Of a stretch of DNA of 64,000 nt, positions 14,820 to 17,800 are shown piece after piece; position 1 is the first letter of the stretch, and each line of letters begins with the position of its first letter. The position numbers are program-made. The DNA comes from Escherichia coli 042 (GTDB taxonomy: Bacteria > Pseudomonadota > Gammaproteobacteria > Enterobacterales > Enterobacteriaceae), in assembly GCF_000027125.1 (NCBI RefSeq), contig NC_017626.1; one strand, 5' to 3'.

Positions 14820-17800
14820 TAGCAATGCGAATATTTGTCTACGGCAGTTTACGCCACAAACAAGGCAACAGTCACTGGATGACCAATGCCCAGTTACTGG
14901 GCGATTTCAGTATCGATAACTACCAGTTGTATAGCCTGGGCCACTATCCAGGCGCAGTTCCGGGGAACGGAACGGTACACGGTGAAGTTTATCGTATTGA
15001 CAACGCCACGCTGGCCGAACTTGATGCCTTGCGCACCAGGGGCGGTGAATACGCGCGCCAGTTGATTCAGACGCCGTACGGGAGTGCATGGATGTACGTT
15101 TATCAACGACCCGTCGATGGATTAAAGCTAATTGAAAGCGGCGACTGGTTAGACAGGGATAAGTAATAATAAAAGCACGCCACCTTCGGGTGGCGTTGTT
15201 TTATGCGATGTATCTCGCGATTTTTTTTTGTAACTTTTCCATCTTTTGCTTTTCTCTCCGAGCCGCTTTCCATATCTGCAATCGCATACAAAACTCTGCT
15301 GGCGTTCACAAATGTGCAGGGGTAAAACGGGGGCACGCTTTGAACGGTGAGTATGAGTGAGGTCGGCTAACTTCCAGCAAGTGGCTATGAACAGCAAAAT
15401 GGTGGTCGGGTTTGCTTGTTCTTACCGTTCAAGCCTTGCAACCGCTGAGAATAATGATGGTGGAATAGAGAGTTTATTTATCGCGGGCATAAAAAAACCC
15501 TTACTAACCGAAGCCCGGCGTTCAGGGTTATTGCGCTAGAAGAACTTATTTATTCTTTGCGCGCTCGAAGGAAGCAACGATTTCAGCTTTAGCGGCTTCT
15601 GCGTTTTCCCAACCTTCAACTTTCACCCACTTGCCTTTTTCGAGGTCTTTGTAGTGCTCGAAGAAGTGAGCGATTTGCGCTTTCAGCAGTTCAGGCAGAT
15701 CGTTTACGTCTTTAATGTGATCGTATTCTTTGCTCAGCTTGCTGTGCGGAACCGCAACCAGTTTCGCATCTTCACCGGCTTCGTCGGTCATTTTCAGAAC
15801 GCCAACCGGACGGCAACGGATCACAGAACCAGGCTGCAGCGGGTACGGAGTCGGGACCAGTACGTCAACCGGGTCACCGTCCAGAGACAGGGTGTGGTTG
15901 ATGTAACCGTAGTTGCACGGATAGAACATCGCGGTGGACATGAAGCGGTCAACGAACAGTGCGCCGCTCTCTTTGTCGATTTCGTATTTGATCGGATCTG
16001 CGTTAGCCGGGATCTCAATAACAACGTAGATGTCTTCCGGCAGATCTTTACCCGCAGGGACGTTGAGTAAGCTCATGTCTGTTTCCTTTAAAAATATGTG
16101 GCAAACAAGTGCCGAGTATTATAGCCAACTCGCGCCGAATGTCTTTGCTTGTTTTCGTCTTCATTTTCCTTTTTCGCCAGTTTTAAGACGGTATACAGAG
16201 CAGGAAAATCCATAACCGTAGCCGCATTTTTCATAGTGAGATGAAAGCGATTACAAACTTGTGATTAACGTTTTATTTACTTTTTTGAAGTGTGATGTAA
16301 CGCAATCCGTTACATAACGAATTGTCTATAGTTTTTTCGCGAACATCTTTTCACCAATAATAATTACCCCGACGAGGACAACCCTATGTGGAAACGCTTA
16401 CTTGTAGTCTCTGCAGTCTCGGCAGCCATGTCGTCTATGGCGTTGGCCGCTCCATTAACCGTAGGATTTTCGCAGGTCGGATCGGAATCCGGCTGGCGCG
16501 CCGCAGAAACCAATGTGGCGAAAAGTGAGGCCGAAAAACGCGGAATTACGTTGAAAATTGCCGATGGTCAGCAAAAGCAGGAAAACCAGATTAAAGCGGT
16601 ACGTTCCTTCGTTGCACAAGGGGTGGATGCGATCTTTATCGCTCCAGTGGTTGCGACGGGTTGGGAACCGGTATTAAAAGAGGCGAAAGATGCCGAAATC
16701 CCGGTCTTCTTGCTCGACCGTTCCATCGATGTGAAAGACAAATCTCTCTATATGACCACCGTTACTGCCGACAACATCCTCGAAGGTAAGTTGATCGGTG
16801 ACTGGCTGGTAAAAGAAGTGAATGGCAAACCATGCAACGTGGTGGAGCTGCAGGGCACCGTTGGGGCCAGCGTCGCCATTGACCGTAAGAAAGGCTTTGC
16901 CGAAGCCATTAAGAATGCGCCAAATATCAAAATTATCCGCTCGCAGTCAGGTGACTTCACCCGCAGTAAAGGCAAAGAAGTCATGGAGAGCTTTATCAAA
17001 GCGGAAAACAACGGCAAAAACATCTGCATGGTTTACGCCCATAACGACGACATGGTGATTGGTGCAATTCAGGCAATTAAAGAAGCGGGCCTGAAACCGG
17101 GCAAAGATATCCTCACGGGTTCCATTGACGGTGTACCGGACATCTACAAAGCGATGATGGATGGCGAAGCGAACACCAGTGTTGAACTGACGCCGAACAT
17201 GGCGGGACCCGCTTTCGATGCGCTGGAGAAATACAAAAAAGACGGCACCATGCCTGAAAAGCTGACGTTAACCAAATCCACCCTTTACCTGCCTGATACC
17301 GCAAAAGAAGAGTTAGAGAAGAAGAAAAATATGGGGTATTGAGGGTTGCTATGCCTGATGCCGATTCGTAGGCCGGATAAGGCGCTCGCGCCGCATCCGG
17401 CGATGGTGCACTGAAGCCTGATTCGACGCTTACCGCGTCTTATCATGCCTACTGGGAGCACGCTTTACACCGGGGGAAACCATGACGACCGACCAACACC
17501 AGGAGATCCTCCGCACCGAAGGATTAAGTTAATTTTTCCCCGGCGTCAAAGCGTTAGACAACGTTGATTTCAGCCTGCGCCGTGGCGAAATCATGGCGCT
17601 GCTTGGTGAAAACGGGGCGGGAAAATCAACGCTAATCAAAGCATTAACTGGTGTATACCACGCCGATCGCGGCACCATCTGGCTGGAAGGCCAGGCTATC
17701 TCACCGAAAAATACCGCCCATGCACAACAACTCGGTATCGGCACCGTCTATCAGGAAGTCAACCTGCTACCCAATATGTCGGTTGCTGATAATCTATTCA

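Follow-up and report, generated by a model that had tools for sequence, protein, structure and literature searches.

The decay of a chromosomal toxin-antitoxin system in Escherichia coli was reportedly described for ccdO157 by Mine et al. in Genetics in 2009 (cited in PMC7167474). Like the system considered here, ccdO157 is a chromosomal type II module at a fixed intergenic site, of which some strains have an intact copy and others a degraded one, but it belongs to the CcdAB family, is not MazEF-like and lies at another locus. A closer match is chpS-chpB of strain K-12 (chpBI-chpBK), a member of the MazE/MazF-PemI/PemK family located between ytfP and ppa, for which Table 1 of PMC5120126 lists spacings of 211 bp between ytfP and chpS and of 79 bp between chpB and ppa.

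For this same locus, a three-state polymorphism was published in 2013 by Pastorello et al. in mBio (PMC3735183): the 47 genomes considered are divided into those with chpBS (53%), those with esiB (15%) and those with neither (32%), and short repeats flanking esiB are recorded as well. The DNA analysed here, a stretch of 64,000 nucleotides (64 kb) from E. coli 042 (contig NC_017626.1) that is referred to as the window, represents the “neither” state of this polymorphism, as no such ORFs are found in its 379-bp ytfP-ppa spacer. That chpSB can be absent from this locus is already known from the same publication. The present analysis differs from that text, which in the consulted portion makes no mention of a piece of chpB persisting in the “neither” state and in the esiB-bearing strain CFT073, and no description of a chpB remnant at ytfP-ppa was found in the literature searched. 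This unannotated remnant is the sole, small addition made here; it is not a new kind of feature, and the feature is otherwise ordinary. When compared with K-12 chpS-chpB, the window shares the ytfP-ppa site, the leader, a segment homologous to codons 7-48 of chpB and the stop region of that gene, but it lacks the antitoxin gene, the promoter, the start codon and the C-terminal two-thirds of the toxin, and the stops and frameshifts in what is left are those of a pseudogene remnant.

The ytfP-ppa spacer and its contents

According to the ORF list and the annotation, the locus consists of tamB (11043-14822, plus strand), ytfP (14825-15166, plus strand), ppa (15546-16076, minus strand) and ytfQ (16386-17342, plus strand). 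The upstream flank of the spacer, ytfP, encodes a protein of the gamma-glutamylcyclotransferase family and is annotated as such in matching genomes, and the downstream flank, ppa, encodes the inorganic pyrophosphatase and carries this annotation both in matching genomes and in K-12. A first, sequence-only reading of the window had estimated the gap between the two at about 380 bp and had placed chpS-chpB in the corresponding interval of K-12, allowing that this placement would be wrong if K-12 proved to have an equally short gap. The spacer (15167-15545) measures 379 bp, and the MG1655 annotation confirms the placement, with an interval of 886 bp that contains chpS (b4224) and chpB (b4225) at the same spacings of 211 and 79 bp from the flanking genes.

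Outside the spacer, the window and K-12 are very similar: ytfP is 100% identical at the nucleotide level (0 differences in 339 nt), and 1.9% of the four-fold sites differ in the last 1,800 nt of tamB. An island of divergence is found at 15167-15472, about 300 bp between the terminators, in which the leader differs by 14% and the chpB remnant by 27%, before divergence returns to 0-2% in ppa. Such a sharp island would be expected of two old haplotypes moved between backgrounds by recombination.

Both ends of the spacer are occupied by terminators. The sequence-only reading had noticed one of them, and it is real: the intrinsic terminator of ytfP (15177-15203, plus strand, terminator scan) comprises an 8-bp GC-rich hairpin (15177-15196; ACGCCACC-TTCG-GGTGGCGT) followed by a T-run, with a predicted fold of -24.5 kcal/mol (z = -4.4), and this hairpin is kept in nearly all of 80 Enterobacteriaceae loci. 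A second small hairpin followed by T9 (15204-15229, plus strand) is part of the fold and is returned by the scan as a terminator-like site. On the opposite side, the convergent ppa terminator (about 15489-15529, minus strand) appears in the centroid fold as an AACCCU...AGGGUU hairpin followed by U7, and the ppa-proximal segment in which it lies (15468-15545) matches K-12 at 97% over 74 nt. Adjacent to the ytfP terminator is the leader (15206-15329, plus strand), whose K-12 counterpart (L001:2284-2398, 86% identity by blastn) separates the ytfP terminator from the promoter of chpS; it is retained in the window despite the loss of chpS. In the 80 loci scanned, the leader (taken as 15206-15335) was found only in Escherichia, in chpSB-bearing and scar-bearing loci alike. 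Its haplotype is not strictly linked to the scar or intact state, as Escherichia sp. MOD1-EC7003 has an intact chpSB and a leader 95% identical to that of the window.

No functional type II toxin-antitoxin module of the chpS-chpB/MazEF-like kind is present in the spacer, in agreement with what the sequence-only reading had concluded for this strain at this locus. When the K-12 proteins were used as tblastn queries, ChpS had no match in the spacer, its best match in the 64-kb window falling inside tamB (E = 0.035), and the sole match to ChpB in the window was a stop-containing fragment at 15362-15445; nothing beyond this fragment rose above chance in the protein-level search for ChpS and ChpB across the whole window. 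Thus, the spacer contains neither an intact antitoxin gene of the AbrB/MazE type (ChpS), chpS being wholly deleted in the alignments, nor an intact ORF for a PemK/MazF-fold toxin of about 116 aa. The view that the gap holds no credible ORF was upheld as well: the four longest ORFs of the spacer (56-82 aa) match no Pfam family when the curated cut-offs are applied, and none of them stays open across the six scar-bearing alleles compared. A promoter scan, based on consensus match only, returned no σ70-like promoter in the spacer, and the K-12 segment directly 5' of chpS, that is, its promoter/operator region, falls inside the first of the two deletions described below. No Rfam family was found in the spacer either (scan of 14800-16400, E <= 1); an S15-leader match inside ppa was sub-threshold (16.8 bits, the cut-off being 39.5) and was taken as chance.

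The chpB remnant and the two deletion junctions

Pairwise and multiple alignments of the window with K-12 divide the spacer into three homologous blocks with two gaps between them. In blastn, the first block (15177-15329) matches the K-12 DNA between ytfP and the chpS promoter at 85.6% identity, the second (15339-15463) matches chpB nucleotides 19-145 at 72.4% over 127 nt (E = 2.3e-12), and the third (15458-15545) matches the last ~10 nt of chpB and the ppa terminator at 93.3%. The sequence-only reading had proposed exactly this alignment to see whether the junction is a clean absence, and it is not one: the leader, a decayed piece of chpB and the chpB stop region all remain. The piece of chpB, about 125 nt in length, on the plus strand and equivalent to codons 7-48, contains in-frame stops and two 1-nt deletions, and ChpB residues 15-42 align to it in tblastn with 14 identities out of 28 and one stop. 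Judging from its significant homology at the orthologous position, flanked by orthologous leader and terminator blocks, the segment 15339-15463 can be regarded as a chpB pseudogene remnant. It is collinear across seven scar-bearing alleles, that of E. albertii included. Among 11 intact alleles compared, the nearest to it are those of Escherichia, with 30-32% divergence, versus 43-54% for six alleles of other genera; a closer relationship with the chpB of Lelliottia, Enterobacter asburiae, strain RIT691, Pseudocitrobacter or Kluyvera was ruled out on this basis.

Relative to K-12, the first gap (deletion 1, ~312 bp) lacks the chpS promoter and ribosome-binding site, the whole of chpS and chpB nucleotides 1-18, and at its junction stand 9 nt (GGGGCACGC, 15330-15338) for which the alignments give no confident match. 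The second gap (deletion 2, ~195 bp) lacks chpB nucleotides 146-340; its junction, found at 15458-15472 on the plus strand (GGTGGAATAG), also includes the final chpB codon and the stop region, and at both end-points of the deletion the K-12 row of the alignment reads TGGTGG, forming a 6-bp direct repeat.

The spacer is probably the scar of a chpS-chpB module destroyed by two deletions. A match to the interior of a coding gene, in combination with stops and frameshifts, makes loss from an intact module the parsimonious direction. Deletion 1 would have taken the promoter, the ribosome-binding site, chpS and the first 18 nt of chpB and, because it covers the promoter, chpS and the chpB start, would have silenced both partners in one event. 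Deletion 2 would have taken place between the two TGGTGG repeats, as is typical of slippage or of microhomology-mediated deletion. The leftover would then consist of the ytfP terminator, the old chpS leader, ~125 nt of chpB and the ppa terminator, and the chpB piece would subsequently have decayed through substitutions, stops and 1-nt indels. The resulting scar haplotype coexists in the population with the intact chpSB haplotype, and recombination would carry the scar between backgrounds. Most likely, the remnant is without function, and the spacer is now only a convergent termination zone for ytfP and ppa.

Distribution of the scar and of other cargo at the site

When 5426 complete E. coli genomes are considered, 2321 (43%) carry the scar, with 1527 of these matches at an identity of at least 99% and 703 at 90-95%, and 3098 (57%) carry chpSB; esiB is found in 188 (3.5%), which are counted within the scar-bearing set. 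In the genomes listed, the scar region is left unannotated by PGAP, with the exception of one odd assembly, HH45. Collinear scars with identical junctions are also found in the E. albertii type strain (378-bp gap, 88% identity) and in SCPM-O-B-8794, labelled E. coli (96% identity), and intact chpSB is present in E. whittamii and in three other divergent Escherichia genomes. These junctions are shared by E. coli strains of phylogroups A and B2, E. albertii and a divergent Escherichia genome, so that the scar would appear to be old. The tamB four-fold divergence of SCPM-O-B-8794 (L007, NZ_JAATUR010000006.1) from the window is 29%, similar to that of E. whittamii and of cryptic-clade genomes, and the record therefore probably falls outside E. 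coli sensu stricto.

As a strain marker, the allele is of low value. Over 24 kb, the window matches porcine ETEC genomes, UMNK88 and CV839-06 among them, at 100% identity, and the scar is found at 100% identity in B95.deltaA, a BL21(DE3) derivative. K-12 carries chpSB despite its near-identical flanks, and the allele is therefore poor at separating related lineages, segregating as it does among close relatives of K-12. The suggestion in the sequence-only reading that the absence of the module is informative for strain background thus holds only weakly, for a state that is found in 43% of complete E. coli genomes and splits close relatives.

Two individual alleles deserve separate description. 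In CFT073 (L003, 6334-8157), esiB, the 1473-bp gene of a Sel1-repeat protein that binds secretory IgA and which is absent from the window, is located between ytfP and the chpB remnant, bounded by two copies of the ytfP terminator hairpin, GCCACCT(T/G)CGGGTGGCG; CFT073 therefore has esiB in addition to the scar, and not instead of it. In HH45 (L002, 1370-1640), a C/G-rich low-complexity stretch of ~130 nt precedes 100 nt that agree fully with the 5' region of K-12 chpB and are fused to the 3' part of the scar. This single genome with an “intermediate” allele, annotated by PGAP as a partial PemK/MazF pseudogene, was rejected as a missing link, the C/G-rich junk at the junction pointing to a probable assembly or consensus artefact.

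Beyond Escherichia, a YtfP scan with one genome per species returned 80 loci, and neither the leader nor the remnant had a match in any non-Escherichia locus among them. The ytfP-ppa gap spans 93-190 bp in Citrobacter, Salmonella diarizonae, Klebsiella, Raoultella, Kluyvera and most Enterobacter, and the five empty sites that were read directly contain the conserved ytfP hairpin and the ppa terminator back to back and nothing else. At the same position, chpSB homologues with 63-78% amino-acid identity are found in Lelliottia sp., Enterobacter asburiae, strain RIT691, two Pseudocitrobacter genomes and Kluyvera genomosp. 1. Unrelated cargo was observed as well, namely a TonB-dependent receptor in several Citrobacter, an Hcp-DUF6883 fusion in C. 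youngae (S. enterica subsp. arizonae has a related protein), a methyl-accepting chemotaxis protein in Silvania confinis (ORFs of equal size are present in Silvania hatchlandensis and Enterobacter soli), an IS256/Mutator-family transposase in Citrobacter sp. FP75, and ORFs without any Pfam match in two further loci (L032 and L079). The occurrence of chpSB homologues and of unrelated cargo at one and the same site therefore marks it as a general insertion hotspot, shared across genera, beside the conserved ytfP terminator hairpin. Locus L070 is a 478-bp contig, SACZ01000200.1, from the Bacteroidota assembly “Prolixibacteraceae bacterium JC049”, with an enterobacterial ytfP 85% identical in amino acids to that of the window; this is most likely contamination.

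Divergence, folding and origin of the remnant

Within E. coli, divergence of the remnant is close to the neutral level, at 7% between the window and CFT073, as compared with 8.1% at tamB four-fold sites. From intact Escherichia chpB it differs by 27-31%, the adjacent non-coding leader differing by 14%, and a rough neutral estimate for a split at the base of Escherichia is about 22%; since the remnant exceeds this value, simple in-place decay would need a very old origin or extra mutational processes. The excess may be due to great age, to a divergent donor allele or to clustered mutation. Between species, the remnant lies below tamB four-fold divergence, with 12% versus 36% between E. albertii and the window and 4% versus 29% between SCPM-O-B-8794 and the window, so that either local introgression or constraint is needed; the fact that between-species four-fold divergence in ytfP is also only 10.9% suggests the former.

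It is scarcely credible that chpSB was never present here in this lineage and that the 379 bp are ordinary intergenic DNA. No chpS or chpB ORF is present, and the region is unannotated in the scar-bearing genomes listed, both of which agree with such a history, but an internal chpB fragment is there (E = 2e-12), the chpS-associated leader is still in place, and the truly empty sites of other genera, at 93-190 bp, have neither leader nor remnant. Rather unlikely, in turn, is that the remnant derives from an already divergent chpB allele of an unsampled relative, which recombined in via the flanks and then decayed, so that its high divergence would have been inherited and not accumulated in place. 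This would account for the ~300-bp island, in which a remnant at 27-31% and a leader at 14% stand beside an identical ytfP and a tamB with 1.9% at four-fold sites, and the chpSB homologues at the same site in Lelliottia, Enterobacter asburiae, Pseudocitrobacter, Kluyvera and RIT691 make cross-genus exchange plausible. However, Escherichia chpB differs less from the remnant (30-32%) than does each of the six alleles of other genera (43-54%), with no closer allele found among those compared; the leader is Escherichia-specific; and a three-way distance comparison would assign almost the whole divergence to the branch of the remnant.

A further consideration is the predicted folding of the fragment. 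The plus strand of the remnant is predicted to form a single long hairpin (-47.9 kcal/mol, z = -2.8) that is not seen on the minus strand (z = -0.95), and a hairpin of this architecture is also predicted for intact Escherichia chpB (-51 kcal/mol and z = -1.8 in K-12; z = -2.75 in E. whittamii), though not for the chpB of Enterobacter asburiae. This chpB 5' hairpin is located at 15339-15435 in the window and at 2711-2806 in K-12 (L001), and its outer 13-bp stem consists of UUUGAACGG(G/U)GAG paired with CU(C/U)(U/A)CCGUUCAAG. The stem is kept between the remnant and intact chpB despite about 28% divergence, with one pair changed on both sides. These features, along with an interspecies divergence below that of tamB four-fold sites, speak in favour of the chpB 5' fragment having been retained as a hairpin insulator or terminator between ytfP and ppa, or as a small RNA, which is nonetheless very unlikely. 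Among the seven scar-bearing alleles, no compensatory base-pair change was found (covariation term -0.22); in the E. albertii allele three pairs are broken and the fold is no better than that of shuffles (z = 0.05); the change on both sides of one pair would be a single event on one branch; the most conserved block of the hairpin is its loop and not its stems; divergence within E. coli is at the neutral rate; and the spacer shows neither a promoter-like site nor an Rfam family. A structured non-coding RNA was accordingly rejected, with no covariation support among the seven alleles and no Rfam match in the spacer, and the hairpin is better read as an inherited property of the sequence than as evidence of function. 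Quite improbable is the broader proposal that scar and intact chpSB form an ancient trans-species polymorphism of Escherichia, as the shared junctions and the ~300-bp island of divergence might suggest, perhaps under balancing selection on ChpB carriage, or, as its other variant, that the chpB 5' hairpin is kept for a structural role between ytfP and ppa, which converge on it.

As a scar of chpS-chpB, the spacer bears on how this locus is annotated and compared. Accessory-gene polymorphism in E. coli is well documented for chpSB, whose presence or absence has been used in distribution and association studies. For annotation and pan-genome analysis, the point is that the “absent” allele is a scar and not an empty site, and one which appears old enough to be shared with E. 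albertii. More generally, the locus suggests that chromosomal toxin-antitoxin modules can be lost by one deletion that takes the promoter, the antitoxin and the start of the toxin.
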